A stretch of DNA of 50,453 nucleotides, counting the filler, from Jimgerdemannia flammicorona (taxonomy: Eukaryota), in assembly GCA_003990765.1 (NCBI GenBank). It is 2 parts of 2 records of this genome, joined end to end, with 100 filler letters (N's around TTAATTAATTAA, not from the genome) between each part and the next. Parts side by side here need not be neighbours in the genome. Positions count along the whole stretch, not along the records: positions 1 to 25,184 come from RBNJ01000870.1; 1 more part is not named here. One strand, written 5' to 3'. Each line of letters starts with the position of its first letter. Positions within the stretch are counted from its first letter, which is position 1. The notes beneath the pieces are model-generated. The model was not told where the DNA came from, ran no database searches, and saw only the letters and a program-made list of their open reading frames with translations. This document shows, piece by piece, positions 4,441 to 25,284 of this stretch. The position numbers and the translations under genes are program-made.

Positions 4441-5383
4441 GACTAGGTCAACCTATTGAAGTACAAACCAGGGCTGACAGTCAAGTGCATACAACCGCTC
4501 GTCGATATTTGAGTTGTGAAAAACTTCTTTCAGTATGTATTTTGATATTTTCGAGGTTATCGGTCTGCCCAGGGCAAAGTCGGCGATAAGCACCGTTCCC
4601 GCTAGAAAGTACCGCTCAACCGAATTGTTCATCAAGATATGACGCAGGACATTTGAAATATACAAATTCAGCGCACTGGGGAGAGATTTCGGAAAAAAAT
4701 ATTGCCGGTTACGTTTCTGCGTATATTTTTTCAAGCGCCGCGGAATTATGATTCCTGTTCTTTAGTCTGTTAGTTCAAATTAGCTACCCTGCGTTTCTGT
4801 TAAGGTGATCTGGAGGGGAGCCAGCTCAACATGTTTGTTTTCAATAATAAAGTAGTTTGTCCTGGAGGTTTACGCACTGTTTAATAAAGTTGGTTGGCTG
4901 TTTCGAGTTATGCGGCTTCAGATAAGCAAGCCGCTGGAGGGCCATTGTGGTATTTACTGTATTGTATACCATGAGCAGTACGGAATCAACGGAACCCAAG
5001 CCAAAGTCAATAAGGACGTCGGCAGTGGTAATGGGCCACCGGAGCAAGTTGCTTGACCTAACTCACAATTGCCACCGCGGAGAGGAGATAAGTGCTTCAG
5101 ATTTATTAACTGCGGCGATATTTCCTCTGTGGGTGATGTCGTCGAACATTTTTTATGTTATGACTTCAATGATGACGAGGTCGAGCATTCATCTTTGTAC
5201 CAGCTCTTTCAAAAATAATTTTATATGCATTACATTACAATATCACATTGTTCTTAGTGATCTGGGGGAAAACGATGCCAAGCTGTAGCTCTGTCTTTTA
5301 ATATTGAACCCATTTAAAATTTCCTAAAGTTTACATGAAGCCGAAAGTTGACTTCAAAAGGGTTTCGTAGCAGCTTCCAGTCA

Positions 5384-7664
5384 TCACGGTCTCCATGGCG
5401 GGGGAAACGCGTTGCTCACGGGACTTCGAGGAGGAACCCCGTTGCCCATTGAGTATCGGTGAAGACCCCCGTTGGCCACGGGGCTCAGTTGGAGAGATCC
5501 AAATCTTTGTCGTCCTTGCTGACTGATCGGGGATCTCCTTTGCGCCACACCTTCTAGCGTAGGAATTTCGAATTTAGTATGAAAACAGGCGATCATATAA
5601 ATTAATTTTTTGTACATAGTAATTTTGGTACAAAACTTGCCTGACAACATGTGTTTTTGCGAAGCCTTTGTGGAACAGATACTGGGAGAACCTTCTGCAA
5701 GCCAGAACCCGGACCTACTGGGGGTGGCCTCAGCTTGGAGTTTTTTACGATGTCGCAAGGCTTCCGGGATTCCGTCTAGCCAAACTTCATCAGCGATCTC
5801 CTCCTCTACACCCTCAAGATCATCCAACACTTCGTTAACGGTCGGTCGGCTTTCGGGGTCCGGGTTCCAGCATCTCTTGTAGATATCTGAATATTCGGAT
5901 GGTGTGCCGGGGATGAGTTCTTCGCGCAATCCAGCTGGAGCAGCATCTGGAGGATGCTTTGCATTTCTCCGAGGGCAGTGTCTCGCAGTAAGTTGCCATA
6001 ACAGTGTTCCAAGGCAGTATACGTCAGATTTTTGCGTAAAAGGCATAATTGTCCCATTGGATTCAAATGCTTCAGGAGGGAGATATTCTATCCGCCCATA
6101 GATGTGACCATCATAATTGCTGAAGTGTTCTACTGTATTGCTTATACCAACATCAATGATCATAGGATTATAATTATCTGTACCAAGAAATACAATATTT
6201 CCTGGGTGTAAGTCATGATGGATCAAGCCTGCATTATGGATCACTTTCAACCTGCGGGTGATCTCTGTAGCAATATTCCACACATTTAACCAAGAATTTG
6301 GTGGAGACTTAGTGAGTAGTCGTGAAAGATCACCGCCAGCAGCATATTTCATGATCAGAATATAACAGCCAGATATATCATCCTTTGATAGCCCAATGAC
6401 TTTTGGTGTTGCTACTCGACGGGAATTGTTGCAGAGTTGAAGATAGATATTGACTAGTAGCTATTTGTAATTATAAATAAAAGTATAATATAAATAAATT
6501 GTAAGATTAAATCATTTTACCTTTAACTTAATAATCAACTACTTACCTCATTTCGCAGTTGATTTTTTACAATGTGACCACTCTCTTTCAATATCTTTAA
6601 AGCGACAGGTTTATCATTCACTACTGCTTTGTATACAGTGGCAAATCCACCTTCGCCCAACTTATTCATCAAAGTAAATTGGTTATAAGGTATCCAAACT
6701 ATGCAAGGTGCAACCTCAACTACTTGTAGCATATTGAGGCCCTCCAAGAGCCTATTTTCGTCGCTAGGAAACTTGGATTTAAGCTTTATCAGAGTACGGC
6801 GATCGATATTTTTAAGGGTATCTTGAATCCGATCAAAGGTGTTTATGGCTTTTGAGGGAATGCCGATTTGAGCGAGAAGCGGAAGGCTTGAATCTGTCCA
6901 TTGAAACCCAGCAAATATATAAATAAATTGAGTTATATCCCATCGCACAGCTGGAAACAATAAATTACACATGGTACTAACATACCATGGATGTTCAACT
7001 TGATGGTTGCATTTCGCTTCAGAGTTGCGTTGAGTAATCTTCTATTGTTATTACAGATATTGTTCCCTATAAATGAAAAATGAACGAATACACAGACCTT
7101 GAGCTGGAGCCCAGCAGGTAGCTAAAAACAACGGGCCTTATATTTATAATATACCAATAATATCAAGCGTTGCTAGAGTTAAGTTCCATATCAGAGCTTC
7201 AATCAGTGCATGTGCTCCCTCATCACTGATGTTGGTGTCTAAGGAAGAATAATAGATGGTTAAACGAACAAGCTCATATTGTGAGCTGGAATTCGGCATG
7301 CAGCGATATATAAAAAATTTTACCCGGTAATAACTTATAACTTACAATTGAGATTCAGCATGGTCAGAGTTATGTTCGACTTCAGAGACATGGCCAGAGT
7401 GCATACTCCCATATTGCCGATTTTGTTGACTAAAGTTGAATAGGAGATAGATTAGTTAAAAAACATGACATTGGCTAAAATGCGTTATGTAGCCGAAAAC
7501 AGAACAGACATACAATTGAGATTTAGCATAGATAGTGTCTTATTTTGCTTCAAAGATTCTGCCAGTGAGTATACTCCCTCTTCACCAATGTTATTTGCTG
7601 AATACAAAAAGGGAATAGATAATAAAAAAATATACAAATTGTAAATTGAGATATATGAAACAGC

Positions 7665-7706
<42 letters not shown>

Positions 7707-10700
7707 ACAGTTCAAACTTACATTCAAGGTTAAGCACAGTCAGAGTCTTACTCGACTCAAGAGATTTGGCAAGAGCACATACTCCCACATCGCCGATATT
7801 GTTGACTGGGGATGAATGAGAGTCAGATAAGTTAAAAACATGATGTCAGAGAAACTCATGATGTAGCTGAAAACAATGGTTCAAAAATCTCTTGCATACA
7901 ATTGAGATTTAATATAGACAAGGTCGTATTTCGTTTCAGGGATTCGGCCATCGCGCATGCTCCCTCTGCACCAATGTTATTGGCTGGACACAAACAATGA
8001 TAGATAATAAAAAATAAATAGGTTGTGAGTTGGAATGGACGAAACAGCTGCAAAATTTTTTCGCACAGTCCAAACGTACATTCAAGATTAAGCATGGTCA
8101 GAGTCTTGCTCGACTCAAGAGATTTGGCCAGGGAACATACTCCCATATCGCCGATATTGTTGACTGACGAATAATGGGGATGGAAGAGTTAAAACCACAA
8201 CATCGGCTGAAACTCATTATGCAGCTGAAAACAATAGTTCAAACAATTCTTGCATACGATTGAGATTTAGCATAGACAAGGTCGTATTTTGATTCAGAGA
8301 TTCGGCCAGTGCGCATGTTCCCTCTGCACCGATGTTATTGGCTGAAAACGAACGGGTGATAGACATAAAAAATGAGCAGGTTGTGAGCAGGAATGCATGA
8401 AAAAGCTGAAAATAACTTTTCCCAAAATTCAAGCATACATTCAAGATTAAGCATAGTCAGGGTCGTATTCGCCTTCAGAGACTCGGCCAATGCCCGTGCT
8501 CCCTCAACGGCAACGTTGTTTCCTGAAGTTAGACAGGGGATGGATGCAATGATAATGAGCTGAAATTCATTCGACAGTGGTAATCAACAGTTTATATAGT
8601 TATAACATACCAATGAGTTCCAAGGTCGACAGCGTCCTGTTTTGCTTCAGCGATTCAGACAGTGCGCGTGCTCCCTCATCGCTGATTTCAGTGTCTAAGA
8701 ATAAGTGATGGATCAGCAAACATTACCATGCATGAATTGGAACATTTCATACAGCTGCACAAAAAATTCATACAACACTAACTTACAATTGAGATTCAGC
8801 ATTATCAGGGACGTATTTGATCTCAGTGAGTTTGCCAGAGTGCATACTCCCACATCGCCGATTTTGTTGACTGAAGGATGGATAAGTTAGAAATATAATA
8901 TCAGCTGGAACTCATCACGCAGCTGAAACAGTAGTTCACACAGTTCCAGCATACAATTGAGATTCAGCATAGATAGGGTTGTATTTTGCTTCAGAGATTC
9001 GGCCAGTGCATAAGCTCCTTCTACACCAATGCCATTGGCTAAAGCCAATGAGAGGATAAATAATCGAAATAAAATAAAATAAAATAAAATAAAATAAAAT
9101 TCAAAAATCTTTCACATAGTTCAGACATACATTCGAGATTAAGCTTGATCAGGGTTGTATTCGTCCTCAGAGACTCAGCCAGTTTACCTACTCCCTCAAC
9201 AACAATGTTATTTCCTGAAAATGGAGAGGAGATGGATGAATACAATACAAATGTTCCAAGTTGTAATTCGTAATAGAGCTGTAATCAACAGGCCACATAG
9301 TTAAAACATACCAATAAGTTCCAATGTGGCCAGGGTCCTGTTATGCTTCAGCAAATTAGCTAGTGCGTATGCTCCCTTCGCACCAATATTATTAGCTGAA
9401 AATGAACAAGAGTTTAATAACGAATCACCAGAGGTGGTGAGTATAACATCTGCATTCAACAGTTTTGCCGGCTCTAACGTACAATTGAGATTCAATGTAG
9501 TTAAAGTCGTGTTCTGCATCAGAAGCTCGGCAAGTATACAAGCTCCTTGGACGCCGATATTTTTGGCTAGATCACAACAGAAGATAGTATATTAAACATA
9601 TATTGGCTGTTATCTAGAATATAAATAGAGCAACAAACAAAAGTTCACATACTTCTAACATACCTTGGAGATCAAGAGCGTTTTGAGTCATATTGTTCTT
9701 CAGAGATGCTACCAGTTCATACATTTTCTCATCATCAATGCCTTTATCTAAACATAATGTAAAGTAGAGAGTTAACTCCGTTTTGATATAAAATATATCC
9801 CCAAAATATTAAAAAATGACTTCTTCTCATTTTTAAAAGATAATATTAGCTTTTATCACATGGTTCAAAAGAGAAGTTCATATAATCACTTTTTAACCAT
9901 ATCTCAACATAAATGACTATGACAGTACGCACCTGCGGCCTCCCCGAACTCCAAATAGAAATTGGGGTTTGGCTCGACCCCCGAATTAGGAGCCAGCTTG
10001 TCGATAGGAACGCCCCCAGAGGTCAGCGACATCAAGTACATCAACGGGATACTGGTTTCATCCGTGGTCGAAGTTTTCGACGAAGTTGAGGAAGCTCCGA
10101 TTTCGGAGGCCTCGCTATTGGAAAAGAACCCTAATGATGTTTGGTCTAAATCTGGTGACCACGCGTTCAATTGCTTGCAATCGGAAGCAATCGAAGAGGA
10201 CATTTCGGGAGTGTTGGGCGTCAACGCTTCTGTCTGCGCGGAGGGGGTTCGGGGGATGTTGGCAGGCAATTCTTCCGGCTGCGGGGAGGGCGTTTGGGGG
10301 ATGTTGACTGTCAACACTTCCGGCGGGGTGATATTGGCGGTCAACGCTTCCAGCTGCGGTGAGGGCGCTTGGGAGACGCTGTCGGTCAACGCTTCGGGTT
10401 GCGGGGAATGAGTTCGGGGGGCGTTGGTGGTTAATTCTTCCAGTTGCGGAGAGGGAATTTGGGGAGTGTTGGCGATCGAAGTTTCGGCCAGCGGGGAGGG
10501 TTGCTTACGAAGCCGTGGCGGAAATAGGGGTTCTTCAGCACAAGACAGGAGGCAGTGCTGGTTCGATGAACAATAATAGAGGCCAACTGTTAGAATGTGT
10601 CAGCATCATACATCTGCCCCGGATTGGAATTGCTGCTGAAAAATTAGTCATTGCAAAGGATGAAAATAACGTACTTTAAGCAGGTCGCCGGCGGAAGCGC

Positions 10701-11953
10701 GCTGCTCAGGATCTCGTATAAAGCATTGATCCATGAAATCTACAAGCTCGCTATGCAAATTTTCAGGATAGTTTGGAGGACCTTGCTCGATAATTTTTTG
10801 CATAATCTAATATTAAATTTAATGACAATATGTATGTAAATAGTCAAAGGATATATAAGAACAAGACAATGTTTAGATAAGGGAATTTGAAAATAATAAC
10901 CTCTTCGTTATGTGATAGTTTGGTAATAAATGGCAAAGTCCAAGTGACTTTAAAAAAAAAAAAAATAATAACCTCTTCGTCTTCTAGTTGATCGTCGTAG
11001 GGACCCTTGCCGCCGTTGAGAATCTCGAGAACTACAATGCCTAATGCCCAAATATCGGCCTTTTGGTTGATGACCTTTCTTTCACAGACTTCAGGGGCCC
11101 AAAAGAATATGATGCCAGCCTCTTCGACTGACGAGTCCACAGTAGGCATTAAGGAGATAACCCCGAAGTCACCTGAATGTGAGATTTCGTAAGTGGGGTT
11201 GGGGGTAAGAGGATATATAGGAATTAGGATTAGAATGTGCGAGGTCTGGCTAATGTGCTGACCAACTTAATAAATAGGTAAGATATTTACCGATCACGAT
11301 TGTGTTGTCTTTTCCAAGGAAGACGTTTTCGCATCTGATATCGCGATGTATGTAGCCGTGCTCGTGAATTTTCACGAGGCCTGACACGAGCTGCGGTATT
11401 TGTGGGCCGAATGATAGGAATGATGGACGAGGAACAAATTATTTGAGGTAGCCTTAAAACACTACGCATCACGCACAACATACCAACTATCCCAAGGAGT
11501 ACAAAGCACTATACTAACCCTTTTGAGAATGAAGACAATTTGCGACAAAGTGACGCAGTTTTAGAAACAGTACCGTTGCAGTGTCCCGCCGTCGCAGTAC
11601 GGTGTTACGAGGAAGACACAGTTATCTAAGATGTGGATGCTGTGCAGTCGTAGAATATTTGGGTGTGGTGCGCATTTTATCATGGTGTATACTTCGTTTT
11701 CGACAAGCTCCGTGGGCATTCCAAACGTTTCCGGATCGTCGTCCTGCTCGATGACCCGGTACTTTTTGATAACCACGTTCTGACGCTCCCCGCGGGCCTC
11801 GTGGCAGAGGTACACGCCACCCTGTTGCGAGGGCCATGTGGGGCTTTTGGCGTCAAGGCCGTCATAAGAGAGCCGCGGGTTAGAGGGGAGTATGAGCACG
11901 CGGTCTTCCCAATGTTCCAACTTGGGGACAGGCAATGGTGCAGGCGCGGACAT
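5384..11953 (-). CDS. Multi-exon dual-kinase LRR gene: PAK/STE20-like kinase - Pro/Thr linker - 16 RI-like LRRs - TKL kinase. One in-frame TAA at 11561-11563, so it may be a recent pseudogene or null allele
   Basis: Manually spliced exons: 11953-11519, 11390-11291, 11172-10973, 10806-10675, 10557-9933, fifteen 84-nt exons (from 9747-9664 to 7238-7155), 7066-6986, 6950-6547, 6460-5384 (possible GC-AG intron 5640-5554). All have GT..AG ends and consistent phases; total 4314 nt, or 4227 nt if the GC intron is removed. Confidence 0.85.
5800..6700 (-). CDS. C-terminal tyrosine-kinase-like (TKL) kinase domain, exons 6950-6547 and 6460-5384
   Basis: WIPYNQF..LGEGGFATVYKA..VALKIL; IMKYAAGGDL; HHDLHPGN; IIDVG; YLPPE; KSDVYCLG; CWNPDPESRP. 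Intron 6461-6546 is phase 0 and restores the frame. Confidence 0.9.
6986..9747 (-). repeat. Array of 16 single-repeat LRR exons (28-aa RI/NLRC3-like LRRs)
   Basis: 84-nt exons 9664-9747, 9483-9566, 9312-9395, 9131-9214, 8955-9038, 8787-8870, 8611-8694, 8439-8522, 8258-8341, 8080-8163, 7900-7983, 7722-7805, 7514-7597, 7346-7429, 7155-7238, plus 81-nt 6986-7066. Consensus xNxIGxEGAxALAESLKxNxTLxxLNLx; all phase 1-1; no stops. Confidence 0.95.
10200..10500 (-). repeat. ~45-nt (15-aa) Pro/Thr/Ser-rich coding tandem repeat in the linker between kinase 1 and the LRRs, about 5-6 units
   Basis: IPSPQLEELTTNAPR / THSPQPEALTDSVSQ / APSPQLEALTANITP / TPSPQPEELPANIPR / TPSAQTEALTPNTPE. Confidence 0.8.
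10540..11953 (-). CDS. N-terminal kinase domain (PAK/STE20-like), exons 1-4 plus the start of exon 5
   Basis: VVIKKY; ELVENEVYTM..HPNILRL; TPYCDGGTL; exon 2 'LVSGLVKIHEHGYIHRDIRCENVFL'; exon 3 'GDFG...FFWAPEV...KADIWALGI'; exon 4 'DFMDQCFIRDPEQRASAGDLLK' spliced to 'HCLL' (the HPFL-type kinase end). Confidence 0.85.
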
Positions 11954-13130
11954 GTGTTATATGGTGTTTTTCGGATGGGTTTCGTTCTTATTAAATGGGT
12001 GATCAAATTCGGTCATTTGTGGCTTGGGGGTGACGTTTCACAAACTACAAAGGACGAGCTAAGTGCGAAATTAAAATGTTAGGCGAAGTGCACTTTGCAT
12101 AATAGAATTAATAACTCCTTAATATCGCTAATATTAAACCAGGATATTTTTAAACCATAAATATTTATTATAACAGTGGTTATTTTGCTCTAATTAAAAA
12201 TATAAATTTGGTTAATTTAGTAACTCAATAATCAGAATAATATTTATATAATTAAATATCTAAATTTAATATATTATTTTATCCGTTTAAATTTAATATA
12301 TTACAGTTTATTTAATTAAATATTATAATAAGTCTTCAATATGAAAATCAGATAATTAAATATATTAAAAACAATCTTATTTAATTTTATTTAATTGCTT
12401 TAATATTAAATATTTTTTTTTCACTTAATAATACATATATAAAATAATACAAATATTAATGAAGCTAAAACACATTATTGTTTATATAATAAATATGTGG
12501 AATTATGATATTACGATATACATCTGTACTAAGGTTTATTACAATTTCGGTCTTTAAATTTATAGCCTATATTTTGATTTCTCAGTCCAAATTCCAAAAT
12601 GTTTAATGAACTGAATTCTATAGTTAATATAGTTTCAATAAGCTAGGTATGTTAATAAAATGCCAGATTAAGAAATGAAATGTCTAAAGGCTTACAGTTA
12701 GAGTATTTAGTGATACCTTAATTTGCCTTTTGGCCTTTTTAGTGACAGCAAGGTAGTATTTTTGATTTCCTGGTAGAATCATTCTCCCATTCATAGCATG
12801 ATGTACTGCCAATGACAGTTCAAAATCGCACATTAGCACAAAATCCACTAACTCTATTCCCAAATCTGTCTCTGGTAATTATATATATTGTAATAGTGGC
12901 CCCAGAATGATGACATCAGCACAGGAGACAGTCTTTTCTTACAAGCTATCAGATCAGAGCACAAGAAGATCATATGACATATGAGATGAGCAATGATAAC
13001 CAACTGTGAGTCATTGTGACCACAGTTCAGATATCTTGAGGAATATAAAAGAAGGATTAAGGAACCATAGTAGCAGCAATCAACAAGACTCATTAATCCC
13101 AAAATAGCTCAAAGACTTACCATAAATGAA

Positions 13131-14196: not shown

Positions 14197-16751
14197 TCTG
14201 TACAACCATTAGTGCCAACCCTGGAACTTAGTAGTTTTTCCTGTTCTGGTATTTCATTTTAGTTATTAGAATTTATATTTAGCTTTATATCTTAACAACC
14301 ATTGAATTATATTTTGTATAAATACTTCTCTTATTTTCTCTGAAATAAAGTCAGTCAAGTTCACTTATACACACTTCCTTGTAAGCAATCTAAGAGATAA
14401 TAAGATAGTTAAAGATAAGAAGTTTGAGGACTATAAGACCTTGGGAAGGTACTCCAATAAGAACTTGCTTATTACAAACTTGAGTTAGTCTAAGAGATAT
14501 ATCTTGAAGAAAATCTGACATATTTGAAGGACTCAGCAATCACTATATAACAACTTGATGCCCATTGACTGGTGATTTAAGACAAATCTCTCACTTTCAA
14601 GCTGAAAAATGAATAATCCCCACAATAACTACCCTGAATACAAGAGTCACTCTTGTAAGAATTTAAGATAAGATGGAAATACATCCCCTTATATTCTATG
14701 GATATATTACTGAAGAGTTAATCCTAACCTTCATTGAAGACTTTGAACAATTTGCCACTATATGAGTCCTTAGTATGGATGCACAATTGGCCCTTCTATC
14801 AGTCAGCCTCAGAGGACCTGCCAGAGATAAGTTCAATGCAGCCACTATTACTGATAATGGTGCAGCCAAACTTATCAACATGAAGGCCTTCCTCAGAACA
14901 ACATACTATACTGAAGAGATCAAGCAAGCTCTCAAGGATCAACTCAATACTATCTGCCAGAGACTTAGTGAAGATCTTAACTCATTTTATACCCAAATCT
15001 GCCACCAGATTGTCTTGGCTGACTATGATGATGCCCTCAAGGAACAAATAGTGGATTCAATCTTCCTCAAAGGAGTTCACTCTGAAATTGCCCTAGCAAT
15101 CTGGTCTACCCCAGCTGTACTGACTCTTGATCAGAAAGTGGTCTTTGGAAAGAGATATTGAACTGCCAGACACCCTGCTGAATACTCAATAGAGAAAATA
15201 ACTGACATCAAGATGGAGCCATCAAGGCCAACAAGTATCATACCTACTTTAGTTGTAAACAGATAACCAACCCCACCTACCCCCAAGGCAGCTAAAGCTG
15301 ACCCAGTGGAGGAACTTGCCAAGCAGTTTACTGAGATGACTGCACACCTTGGTGATGTTGTTAGAGAAGTCTGAAGTGCCAACAGGAGACCAGTGTAGAG
15401 ATTTGCAGCTGCTACAGAAGAATGCAATATCACATACTTCAGATGTGGAAAAGAAGGCCACTATACAAAGAATTGCATGACCAAAACAAGATACAAAGCC
15501 CAACCAAGTAATGCTAGTAGAACCAGAAAACAAACTAATATAGTAGTCATCAAGGATATTAGTAATACTGATGATGAAAAATACTATGAGGAGCTTGAAT
15601 TCTACTCTGCTACTGAAGATACCAGAACCCGGTCCAAGCTCTATGACAAGAAGAGCAACAGTAAGCCAGTTGGAAGGCCAAAGAAGACCCCAGCCCAGCT
15701 ATTACTATTCAAAGCAAGACTCAACCTGAGGAGATTGATCAAGACATAGAGTTAGATGAAGCTGCCCACCAAATCATTAAAGGCACTACTCCAGTTTTAG
15801 GAGAAAGTGAAAGCAAGAAGGAATAGAAGCTACACAAGACCAAGATCCACCAGTATGATATCTATAAGGATCTCAAGAAACAGAAGGTCAATGCTACTTT
15901 TGGACAGCTAGCCAAAGTCCCTACCTTCAGATAGCAGTTGAGAGTAGGACTTACAACTACTGCCAAGAATCAAGAGTACAAGATTGTAGAAGCTCACAAT
16001 GCACAAAAAGAATCTGAAAACTCAGATGAAGAATCCAAAGACCAGCACAAGACATCAGCCTATATCCCATATCAGATTGAAGACTATATCTTTGATGCCA
16101 TCATTGATACCAGTACTGGAGAATACCTCATGAGCAAGAAGGCAATTAACTGCCTAGGCTGGGACATTGAAGAGTCCACCAAGATTGTTTATGTTACAGC
16201 AGATGGTATACAAGATATTCTCCTTTGCAAAATCTGAGAAGTCTTCATCAAGATAGGAGGAGCTACCATCCCAGTGGATGTGATTATTACAAGTGCCACC
16301 AACTATGACATCCTTATTGGCAATCAATGGCTTCACAAGGCCAAGGCCATCATTGACCTCAATGCAGATCAACTATAGAGGAAAAAAGGTACATGTCTCT
16401 ATCAATGTCTACAAAGAAGTCCTACCAGACATAGAGGAAGGAGATGAAGAGGATACAGAGGACTTCATACACTCAGTGAACAATAATAAGAACAAGACAC
16501 CCAAGCTCACAGATGAGCAGTGGTACAACAAGATTATTGATAGCTATGCCCCTCAAGAAAGATGCTCCCATGGTACTAGGATGTACTGCTCTGAATACCT
16601 GAATGACTACTGGTTCTGTATCAGTGAAGTCAGGAAAATCTGCCAACAGAAACATGAGCAAGAAGCCACTGAAGCAAAAAGGAAAGCTGAAGAAGATGAC
16701 CAGCCCCCAGAGGTTCAAGCTGACAGTGATAATGAGGAGGAACAAAAACCA

Positions 16752-17172
16752 GATATCACCCTCAAGGTCAAGAAGTTCTACCCCAAAGCCAAGATCCCAG
16801 AATATAAGACTGAAAGAGCCATAGAAATGGACCTTGCCAGCATTCAAGATGCTATCCTCAAACCACAGACCACTACCCTACTTGGTACTGGAATTGGAGT
16901 TAAGCTGCCAGAGAACTATGCCGGAATTATCAAGACCAGGAGTAGTTTGGCCAAAAGTGAAATCTCAGTTGAAGGAGGAGTAATTGACCCTAATTATACT
17001 GGTGAGATCTTCCTCATAGTCAGGAATCACAACTCCACCACTCCATTTGAAGTCAAGAAGTATAATAGGATTGGTCAGATACTGATCTATGAAATCAAGA
17101 AACCCAAGATCACTGAAGCCATCAAACTCATCAAGATCAAGAGAGGAGAACAAGGCTTTGGATCCACTGGAA
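16752..17172 (+). CDS. dut: dUTPase domain in pol of Gypsy element 1, between PR and RT
   Basis: ORF 16293-17270: 'AIEMDL', 'IKTRSSLA', 'VEGGVIDPNYTGEI', 'NRIGQIL', 'RGEQGFGSTG' correspond to trimeric dUTPase motifs I-V. Confidence 0.92.
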
Positions 17173-20100
17173 GAAGAACCTATACCACTATCAAGATTAC
17201 TGAACTTGAACACAAGAAGGACAAGGACCAGAACAAGCACATATATACTATTAGAGAAACTTTCCCCTAGAAGACCAACTTCTCAAGATCCTGTATCAGA
17301 ATGAAGGAGTACTTGCTACAGACTTCAGGAATATTCACAATCAAGAACCCAAGTACTACCATGGAGTTGACACTAGTGATACCAAGCCCATTTACCAGAA
17401 AGTCAGACCCATACCACCTGTCTACAGAGAATGACTGTGAGCAGAACTCAAGGAAATGGAAGAAGCTGGAATCATCAAGCAAGCTACCAGTCCCTGGGCT
17501 TCACCCATTGTCCTCACCCCAAAGAAAGGAAGCAAGTCTGGAGAGTTTGTACCAAAACTCTGCATTGACTACAGGAAGCTTAATGTCATTACCAAGAAGG
17601 ATAGGCAACCCTTGCCAAATATTCAAAAAATCCTCACCACTCTTGAAAGCAAAGCCAAATACTACACTACCTTGGATCTGTTCTCAGGCTTTCATCAGAT
17701 TGGTCTCACTCAAGATGCTAGTGAGAAATCAGCCTTCATCATACCTGATGCCACATATATCTACCTGCAAATCCCATTTGGAATGTACAATGTACCAGTA
17801 AGTTTCCAGTGAATGATGAACAGAGTCTTTAGCAATGAGATTGGAAAATGGCTCTTTGTCTATATTGATGATGTGATCATCTTCAGCAACACTATATAGG
17901 AATATGTTAATCACATACAGCTAGCTCTCAAGAAGCTCAAGGAGCATGGCCTTTATATCAAGCCCAAGAAATACAAGTTTGCAGCTCAAGAAAAGGACAC
18001 CTCATCAACCAGACCAGAATCCACACAGACTCCATGAAGATTGAGGCTGTTGCAGCCTACCTGAGACCCAGAATGACCACAGAAGTCCATATCTTCCTTG
18101 GACTGTCCAGCTACTATAGAAGATTTATCAAATAATACTCCAATATTGCAGCACCTATCTATAAGCTACTGAAGAAGAAAACCAAATTCGAATGGACCAA
18201 GGAATACCAAGAAACCTTCAATGAACTCAAGACCAGATTGACCCAAGCACCTATCCTCAGAAGACCAGATTGGAACCTAGAATTCATCCTGCAGACAGAT
18301 GTGAGTACTATAGGACTTGGAGCAGTCTTAGCTCAGAAGAAAGATGGACATAAATATATTATCTCCTATACAAGCCGAGATATCTATGGAGTAGAACAGA
18401 ACTACAAGTTATGCAAACTCAAATACTTAGCAGTAGTTTGAGCAGTAGACAAGTTCTACTACTACCTAGCTGGAAAACACTTCACTATTCAAACAGACCA
18501 TTGCACTCTTGCCTGGCTATTCCACACTCTGAACCCTAAAGGAATATATGCCAGATAGATCTACAGACTGCAAGAGTATGACTGTACTATCAAGCACCAC
18601 TCAGAAAGAACCAACACCAATGCTGATACACTCTCAAGGGCACCCCAAAACACTCCCATCAAGATTACTCAATATGAATAAGGAGTTATACTATGGATTA
18701 ATCAGCTATCTTAGGCAGTGGAAGATGCCCAACCATTTTGAACCCTGGACAATCACCATCATCAACTGGACTTGGAAACAGTTTGAACTAGGCAACACTA
18801 TACTCAGAAAAAGAGGAAAGCTAGTAATACCTGAATATAAGAAGTATCAAGTAATGAAGGAAGTACATGAGCAAGGACACCTAGGAGGAACCAATATATA
18901 TGACAAGGCAAGAAGAACCATGTGGTGGCTCCAAGATAGAAGAAAACCTATACCAATTTGTCAAAGAGTGTGATAAGTACCAAAAACAGAAACAAGATCA
19001 GCAAGACCAGGCACTCAGGTCATTAAGAATTGAGCCTATCCCCTTCCACCACATTACAATGGATATCATTGGACCACTACCAGTAATACTATCAGGAAAC
19101 TGCTATATTATAGTTATTGTAGACCTCTTTACTAAATGGATAGAAGCAGAAGTATTACAAGAAGCCAATGCCTACTCTATAGATGATTCCTGCACTGAGA
19201 AATCATCTGCTACTATAAGACACTGAAGCAAATCACAACAGACAGTGATACAGAATTTGTCAATGGATTCCATGAGACAATATATCAGAAATACAAGATC
19301 CATTACATCAAGAATACCACATACCACCCTCAAGGAAATGGACAGACAGAGAGAACCAACAAGACCCTCAAGAATATTCTGGTAAAGATCTCAGAGACAT
19401 ATGAGAATTGGGATAATTGTCTCCCAACTGTCCTCTCTGTCCTATGAGACATATGATCACAGAGCACACACTTTACCTCAAGGAAACTGCTCTTTAGAGA
19501 AGAAGATTCTGATGGAACCTCAGCCATAAATCTAAACCTAACTTGGAGATAGGTCACTGCAGAAATTGGGAGACTATATCAAATTAGGAAAAAGGCCAAA
19601 GATTATATTATTAAGTCACAAGCACTAATAAGGAAGAATGCAGAAAAGAATCACAAGACCCTAGAACTCATCCAAATCAGAGAAAAGGTCCTACTATATC
19701 GAAATATAGTAGAAGCCTCATAGTCACAAAAACTGGAGCTCAAATGGAAAGGACCTTTCTATATACAAGATATAAAGGGAACTATCTTCTGGCTTAGAAA
19801 ACTCTCAGAGACCATACTGCCTACCACAGTACATAGAAACAGACTCAAGAAGTATCATGAATCTATATAAGAGAAGCAAAACATGATGACTGTCCACAAG
19901 GTTCTAGTCTGTGAATTATAACAGTATGTCCCATAACCAGAAGGCTATCTGTCTGGACCATTCTCTAAGGGATATGATACTAGCAACTATTTATCTGTAA
20001 GACTTTCAAAGTCAGAGGATTTTGAACTATCAACTGATTGGTCAAGATCAGAATCAGGTCCTTGCTCTATATGAAGGGAATAACCCTTCACCATCATGCC

Positions 20101-25184: not shown

Positions 25185-25284
25185 NNNNNNNNNNNNNNNN
25201 NNNNNNNNNNNNNNNNNNNNNNNNNNNNTTAATTAATTAANNNNNNNNNNNNNNNNNNNNNNNNNNNNNNNNNNNNNNNNNNNN
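25185..25284. other. Artificial assembly spacer (44 N + TTAATTAATTAA + 44 N)
   Basis: Exactly 100 nt, with a six-frame-stop linker in the middle. Confidence 0.95.

Follow-up and report, generated by a model that had tools for sequence, protein, structure and literature searches.

The combination of a cytosolic leucine-rich repeat (LRR) array with a kinase of the tyrosine kinase-like (TKL) group occurs in the ROCO/LRRK proteins (Dictyostelium ROCO, metazoan LRRK1/2), as presented in the parts of PMC1420674 and PMC4053784 used here. Plant tandem kinases (RPG1, WTK and Pm57-type), as far as the descriptions at hand go, carry two kinase folds, one of them often degenerate, and are seen as intracellular immune receptors, and animal NLRC/NOD proteins and ribonuclease inhibitor (RI) contain 28-residue RI-type LRRs. 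In fungi, NLR-like proteins (counterparts of nucleotide-binding LRR receptors) bear WD40, TPR or ankyrin repeats and not LRRs according to the portion of PMC10197012 drawn on here, and a 2010 survey of 49 fungal genomes reports, in the part cited, that proteins with both LRRs and a kinase were confined to one chytrid and a few ascomycetes (PMC2939053). Here we describe a locus of Jimgerdemannia flammicorona (assembly GCA_003990765.1, record RBNJ01000870.1) that holds an LRR array and a TKL-group kinase as in ROCO, two kinases as in the plant proteins, and 28-residue RI-type repeats. The window (the whole stretch of DNA analysed, 50,453 nucleotides) is best explained, with modest confidence on our part, as holding one lineage-specific multi-exon gene of this member of the Endogonales, which would encode a STE20/PAK-like kinase (kinase 1), a Pro/Ser-rich linker, 16 RI/NOD-type LRRs and a non-RD TKL kinase.

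For the gene model, the minus strand of window positions 12500-5000 was translated in three frames and the exons were joined. The spliced model consists of 23 exons between 11953 and 5384 (minus strand); the joined frame counts 4257 nt (1418 codons) and all 22 introns have GT..AG ends. Its features are as follows.

11519..11953, minus strand: exon 1, with start ATG 11953-11951 and the kinase-1 N-lobe to hinge (VVIKK, ELVENE)
11561..11563, minus strand: in-frame TAA, codon 131, in kinase subdomain V/VIa
11291..11390, minus strand: exon 2, with catalytic loop HRDIRCEN (R where the family has K)
10973..11172, minus strand: exon 3, DFG to APE and subdomains VIII-IX; Pfam profile positions 141-198
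10675..10806, minus strand: exon 4, subdomains X-XI, ending in ...AGDLLK
9933..10557, minus strand: exon 5 (625 nt), with the kinase-1 end (HCLLSCAEEPLFPPR), the Pro/Ser-rich linker, end motif PNFYLEFGEAA and phase-1 donor CAG/GTGCGT
9748..9932, minus strand: putative intron 5 (185 nt), GC 0.26, TTAAC 27 nt 5' of AG; predicted kinase-1-to-LRR junction
6986..9747, minus strand: exons 6-21, sixteen LRR exons of 28 residues each, the last of 27; introns of 84-124 nt
6547..6893, minus strand: exon 22, the pre-kinase region common to Endogonales TKLs and the TKL N-lobe (GEGGFATV, VALK)
5384..6460, minus strand: exon 23, TKL C-lobe (HHDLHPGN, DVG, PPE), tail and stop TGA 5386-5384
5554..5631, minus strand: uncertain candidate for a further in-frame intron of 78 nt (GTACCA..CTAG), located within the AT-rich tail

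An earlier note on this DNA had proposed most of this structure, and its joins were largely reproduced. Exon 4 ends in ...AGDLLK before the donor GTACGT at 10675 and HCLLSCAEE opens exon 5 at 10557; exon 5 measures 625 nt and leaves in phase 1 at 9933, the phase in which all 16 LRR exons and exon 22 are entered; and the exon-5 frame opens past the stop at 10602-10600, with its earliest Met in ...PEMSSS. The claim that everything lies in one spliced reading frame does not hold as described: all introns of the model are canonical and the phases match, but an in-frame TAA at 11563-11561, which the note had not reported, breaks the frame. At the other end, the 3' tail may contain one more intron (the candidate listed above), which leaves the gene end at 5384 uncertain; the alignment of a paralogous transcript contig ends at 5552, close to this candidate.

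Transcript evidence comes from one sequencing run, X1 (its kind guessed as RNA; 0.17 of sampled words), which was aligned to the window as contigs. Seventy-five records could be aligned, 5 of them at least 99% alike, 1 at 95-99% and 69 at 90-95%. Exact matches cover 5982-6411 (exon 23), 10062-10339 (exon 5), 10982-11170 (exon 3) and 11773-11936 (exon 1). The exon 4/5 junction (10675/10557), the first that the earlier note had put forward for checking, is present as an intron-less contig joint that skips 117 nt with CT..AC ends, and joints with the same ends occur at 11390/11519 (intron 1) and 11170/11289 (intron 2). Together these three joints support the kinase-1 exons as modelled, among them the passage from exon 4 to exon 5 by which subdomain XI is completed. 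Further downstream, a contig of 732 nt, whose exon-22 part is about 91% alike, shows splices at 6454/6547, 6892/6996, 7065/7154 and 7236/7346, from which it follows that a paralogue expresses LRR-LRR-LRR-TKL joined at the same sites. Other joints at LRR exon borders are found at 8163/8259 and 7597/8080 (the latter with two exons skipped). Over LRR exons 8102-9117 the summed contig depth reaches 4334 and several joints link non-adjacent LRR exons; RI-type LRR transcripts that resemble one another appear to form a large family in the run. In the Pro-rich linker repeats one contig (depth 15.3) skips 33 nt at 10301-10335, which is either a length variant or a paralogue.

The repeat array has 16 exons, the number of RI-type LRRs given in the earlier note. 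All of them enter and leave in phase 1, 15 counting 84 nt (28 residues) and one 81 nt (27 residues). Alignment of the 16 repeats gives the consensus xNNIGxEGaxaLAEsLKxNtTLxxLNLx, in agreement with the period of 28-29 residues and the LxxLxLxxNxIGxxG-type pattern that characterise this class. Pfam LRR_6 matches on single exons or on exon-intron-exon open reading frames (ORFs) are weak (E 0.013-0.18; 12.4-16 bits against a cut-off of 23.4). Searched against solved structures, a natural ORF of two repeats finds 5irl (E 8.9e-7) and 5irm (1.9e-6), both of which we take to be rabbit NOD2, together with LRRC34, DRC5 and RI-like chains. Repeats 9 and 11 are 88% identical at the DNA level and repeats 10 and 12 are 90% identical, with flanking introns 75-77% alike; this high identity of exons and introns indicates that a two-exon LRR block was duplicated recently. 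On the gene strand, intron 17 has a poly-A tract (7658-7712) and intron 3 a poly-T tract (10947-10981), both masked as repeats in the contig alignment.

The C-terminal domain, which starts within about 70 residues of the last LRR, is a TKL kinase as predicted earlier (PF07714, E 3.5e-21), with MLK1 (1.3e-16), RIPK4, RIPK1 and TAK1 as the closest solved structures. In exon 22, Pfam gives kinase matches and one weak DUF3866 hit (E 0.088, below the cut-off). The motifs of the kinase read GEGGFATV, VALK, HHDLHPGN, DVG and PPE, so that canonical HRD and DFG are both absent, and it retains the catalytic Lys and Asp, the Asn and the Asp that binds Mg. Judged by these residues the kinase is of the non-RD type and not clearly dead.

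It belongs with an Endogonales subfamily that shares the motif HxDLHPGN (P0006, P0007, P0009, P0126, P0129, P0133 and P0142), six of whose seven members align to the kinase and pre-kinase region of the model with 32-51% identity; the alignment of P0129 begins at model position 981, inside the pre-kinase region. In all six relatives read (all except P0009) the Arg of HRD is missing and DFG is replaced by D[VIL]G. What stands in front of this kinase varies: a caspase domain, a second TKL, ATG13 or nothing in the relatives, LRRs in the window. None of these relatives contains LRRs, with 0 matches to model residues 497-945. As to architectures, P0006 combines caspase and TKL, P0007 TKL and TKL, P0009 ATG13 and TKL, and P0008 TKL and a ricin-B lectin. 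P0007 (J. flammicorona, 719 aa) has an RD-type TKL (34-295) followed by a kinase of the HxDLHPGN subfamily with a degenerate G-loop. In P0006 (Endogone sp., 719 aa), a Peptidase_C14 domain precedes a TKL that is 49% identical to the one described here and whose catalytic Asp has been replaced (IHSNLHPGN).

At the other end of the model, four pieces from exons 1-4 tile the Pfam Pkinase profile at positions 12-88, 108-137, 141-198 and 224-258, the match in exon 1 (12-88) having an E-value of 2.7e-6. The assignment to STE20/PAK-like kinases, made previously, is supported by way of a complete stand-in paralogue (P0005, 68% identical), for which PAK1 is the closest solved structure (E 1.9e-28), followed by NEK1, SLK and MST3. 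Kinase 1 retains VVIKK (with the VAIK-type Lys), HRD, DFG and APE; a PAK-type CRIB/PBD is not seen ahead of it, the kinase beginning about 40 residues from the first Met and Pfam matching only the kinase in exon 1. It lacks the intact set of catalytic motifs in an open frame that would be expected for the STE20 group, given the loop R and the TAA at codon 131. Among its aligned J. flammicorona paralogues, three read GFG in place of DFG, and in one the VAIK Lys is replaced by R; all motifs are retained in the six family members of other origin. Such changes would fit a kinase 1 that is drifting toward a non-catalytic role.

The premature stop lies between GGTLQRYCF and NCVTLSQIVFILKR (the stretch was also read as GGTLQRYCF, stop, NCVTLSQ, in the kinase-1 core), in a stretch that fills the gap between Pkinase profile positions 88 and 108 that are matched by the flanking pieces. 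In all 14 aligned relatives this column is occupied by a coding residue (E in 7, D in 6, R in 1), and a change from GAA to TAA takes a single base. Apart from this codon nothing is broken: the frame stays open through the remaining 1287 codons, and the splice sites are canonical throughout. With TAA at codon 131, the gene as assembled cannot give a protein of 1418 aa; the copy present here would be a null allele or pseudogene of very recent origin, unless the TAA is a base or allele artefact. A short alternative intron from 11608 to 11390, by which the public model of this locus avoids the stop, was rejected, since the contig joint uses the donor at 11519 and 30 conserved core residues would be deleted.

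No membrane anchor is apparent. In a Kyte-Doolittle scan of the model protein no transmembrane (TM) helix was evident, in line with the prediction of a cytoplasmic protein: the top 19-residue mean is 1.67 and belongs to a kinase-core helix. The layout of LRR receptor kinases (signal peptide, extracellular LRR, TM helix) is likewise absent by hydropathy, no dedicated signal-peptide predictor having been run.

The LRR-TKL part was said to be hidden, and it is: among database proteins of 196-2000 aa none covers the TKL exon of the locus, the best match being 59% identical. The closest proteins are from J. flammicorona and next from Endogone sp. The public model of the locus, P0001 (407 aa), agrees letter for letter with 11953-11609, 11390-11298, 10806-10675 and 10557-9907; in it the 90 nt around the TAA are removed as intron, and exon 3 (DFG to APE) is omitted. 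Within the rest of the window no second copy of the model was found (0 of 75 tblastn high-scoring pairs outside 5300-12000). The N-terminal STE20-like kinases of Mucoromycota (P0177, P0178 and P0180-P0183) are 49-55% identical to kinase 1 and have their kinase at the extreme N-terminus as well; unlike the model they show full catalytic motifs and long disordered tails in 511-699 aa in total, without LRR or second kinase. P0187 (1353 aa), the one long close match from a representative search with P0005, consists of a kinase and a Ser-rich tail and has neither LRR nor TKL. A metagenome scan with the kinase-1 family profile returned 79 loci, all at most 36% identical and none in the family. The earlier statement that this layout is undescribed holds insofar as neither an annotated fused relative nor a paper on it was found for Jimgerdemannia, Glomeromycotina, Rhizophagus or Mucoromycota (supplements not covered); the kinases mentioned in PMC12574304 are metabolic only.

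The reading as a single gene depends on the exon 5/6 junction (9933/9747), on which there are no X1 contigs (none at 9626-9879 or at the exon-5 3' end), so that it was neither seen nor excluded. What speaks for the link is the matching phase, the homology between exons, an exon-end motif that is conserved, and the fact that no ATG lies upstream. Exon 5 encodes a linker of 208 aa (14% Pro, 13% Ser) that matches no Pfam family and that closes with PNFYLEFGEAA, a motif common to the window and four of the five paralogues. The public models of the paralogues end 0-18 residues past this motif, and their short ends are what read-through of a conserved donor would give; in P0173 (GK..) and P0196 (GM..) the read-through residues back-translate to G/GTAAGT and G/GTATGT (from protein only, with codon choice assumed). 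On the acceptor side, exon 6 begins at the same repeat position and in the same phase as the other 15 LRR exons, and its first 8 codons (DKGIDDEK), located upstream of the exon's only ATG (9724-9722), still match the repeat. The 185-nt gap between them (9932-9748) offers no upstream ATG in the exon-6 frame and resembles the other introns, with a GC of 0.26, the donor GTGCGT and a branch-like TTAAC. From these sequence features we consider it reasonably probable that exon 5 is spliced to exon 6 and kinase 1 thus fused to the LRR-TKL part.

Several observations weigh against this fusion. P0001 passes through the exon-5 donor and ends inside the putative intron 5, at a stop (9906-9904) 9 codons on, and the read-through peptide resembles that of P0173 (G.YC.HS), so that the stretch past exon 5 could be coding in a short isoform. 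The in-frame ATG 9724-9722 in exon 6 could start a separate LRR-TKL protein. LRRs or a TKL occur in none of the kinase-1 relatives found (5 of 5 from a database search; 13 of 13 family members scanned, P0187 among them), those from outside Jimgerdemannia consisting of a kinase and a disordered tail, and no TKL relative found lists PF13516 among its precomputed Pfam domains. Other points concern the copy itself and its contigs. As assembled, translation from ATG 11953 stops after 130 residues. In the kinase-1 loop HRDIRCEN, R stands at the position of a catalytic-loop K shared by 13 of 13 relatives. In run X1, the part of the kinase-1 contig that lies on exon 2 has 6 mismatches in 102 bases; some of the junction evidence may therefore stem from an allele or paralogue. 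With a premature stop and a putative fusion, the window copy is a weak flagship for the architecture.

The first group of these points is also what two adjacent genes would produce: a kinase-1-plus-linker gene ending by 9906-9904, as P0001 does, and an LRR-TKL gene transcribed from the 185-nt gap and translated from ATG 9724-9722. Such an arrangement would agree with every annotated kinase-1 family member being kinase and tail only, with the in-frame ATG in exon 6 and with a read-through peptide partly common to P0173. However, both a 3' end and a promoter would have to fit into 185 nt, the neighbouring DNA in the window being AT-rich spacer and retroelement; the exon-5 donor has the matching phase, and exon 6 has kept its LRR-type acceptor and, ahead of that ATG, codons that are LRR-like. 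P0001 itself carries little weight, since it is mis-spliced elsewhere (exon 3 and 90 nt of exon 1 are skipped). Overall, we regard two genes as unlikely, though this is the alternative that survives best.

It might also be argued that the gene is intact and functional, with the TAA introduced during assembly or base calling, or belonging to one of the alleles in a multinucleate, heterogeneous sample. Of the 1418 codons a single one is a stop, one base away from the GAA of the family, and the splice sites and the remaining 1287 codons are undamaged; the locus gives exact-match intron-less contigs, and the exon-2 contig with 6 of 102 bases different implies that a second variant exists. Nonetheless, the public annotation was built around the stop, which means that the TAA base is present in the deposited assembly, and the K-to-R change in kinase 1 is in keeping with relaxed constraint. 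Three aligned J. flammicorona paralogues have GFG where DFG is expected. An undamaged gene seems doubtful to us.

That the whole locus has no function and is decaying, as the remnant of a duplicated family in repeat-rich surroundings, is improbable: the premature stop, a retroelement with dUTPase and reverse transcriptase ORFs some 3-6 kb upstream and the low contig depth of the exact pieces (about 2.5-4.6) would suit it, but only a single disabling change is seen across a coding sequence of 4.3 kb and 44 splice sites, and spliced contigs represent the locus.

The surroundings of the gene are repeat-rich and AT-rich. Retroelement ORFs lie upstream of it at 14775-17812 (plus strand), with matches to dUTPase (E 1.6e-25) and to the reverse transcriptase family RVT_1 (E 4.7e-12). 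The window contains two N runs of 44 each (25185-25228 and 25241-25284).

Returning to the single gene with kinase 1, LRRs and TKL kinase, its origin may be pictured as follows. The LRR array probably grew by exon duplication and would have been placed ahead of a kinase from a TKL subfamily that in relatives is preceded by different N-terminal modules, while the N-terminal kinase would have been drawn from a family of kinases with disordered tails that has expanded in J. flammicorona. The product would be a cytosolic protein with an LRR solenoid that would bind a ligand or partner and govern the TKL kinase at the C-terminus, the degenerate N-terminal kinase acting as a regulatory, scaffold or decoy module. 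By analogy, an immune or partner-recognition role might be considered. In a bolder version, which we put forward as a speculation with little chance of being right, the Endogonales would possess a family of cytosolic receptors with a NOD/RI-type LRR sensor and a non-RD TKL output, some with a degenerate STE20-like bait or regulator: a counterpart of NLRs and tandem kinases free of the NTPase, which would recognise bacteria, fungi or the plant partner.

If true, an RI-type LRR-TKL family that is expressed in an early-diverging lineage of plant symbionts would add an LRR-based class of cytosolic sensors to the fungi, and it would also mean that automated annotation misses such genes with many small exons.

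The candidate gene differs from the known systems as follows. ROCO proteins, in the passages of PMC1420674 and PMC4053784 referred to, are defined by a Roc GTPase and COR between LRR and kinase, whereas the linker and pre-kinase pieces of the window gene show no such Pfam matches; in addition, its repeats are 28-residue RI/NOD-type LRRs and it has a second, N-terminal kinase. Plant tandem kinases lack an LRR array between the domains in the accounts available, and their kinase lineages are plant-specific. NLRs need a NACHT/NB-ARC NTPase, of which there is none in the Pfam matches of any piece of the window gene, and the output module here is a kinase. Summarizing, one hidden gene is a plausible reading to which the spliced contigs lend partial support, and it presents itself as a variation on the LRR-kinase and tandem-kinase themes.

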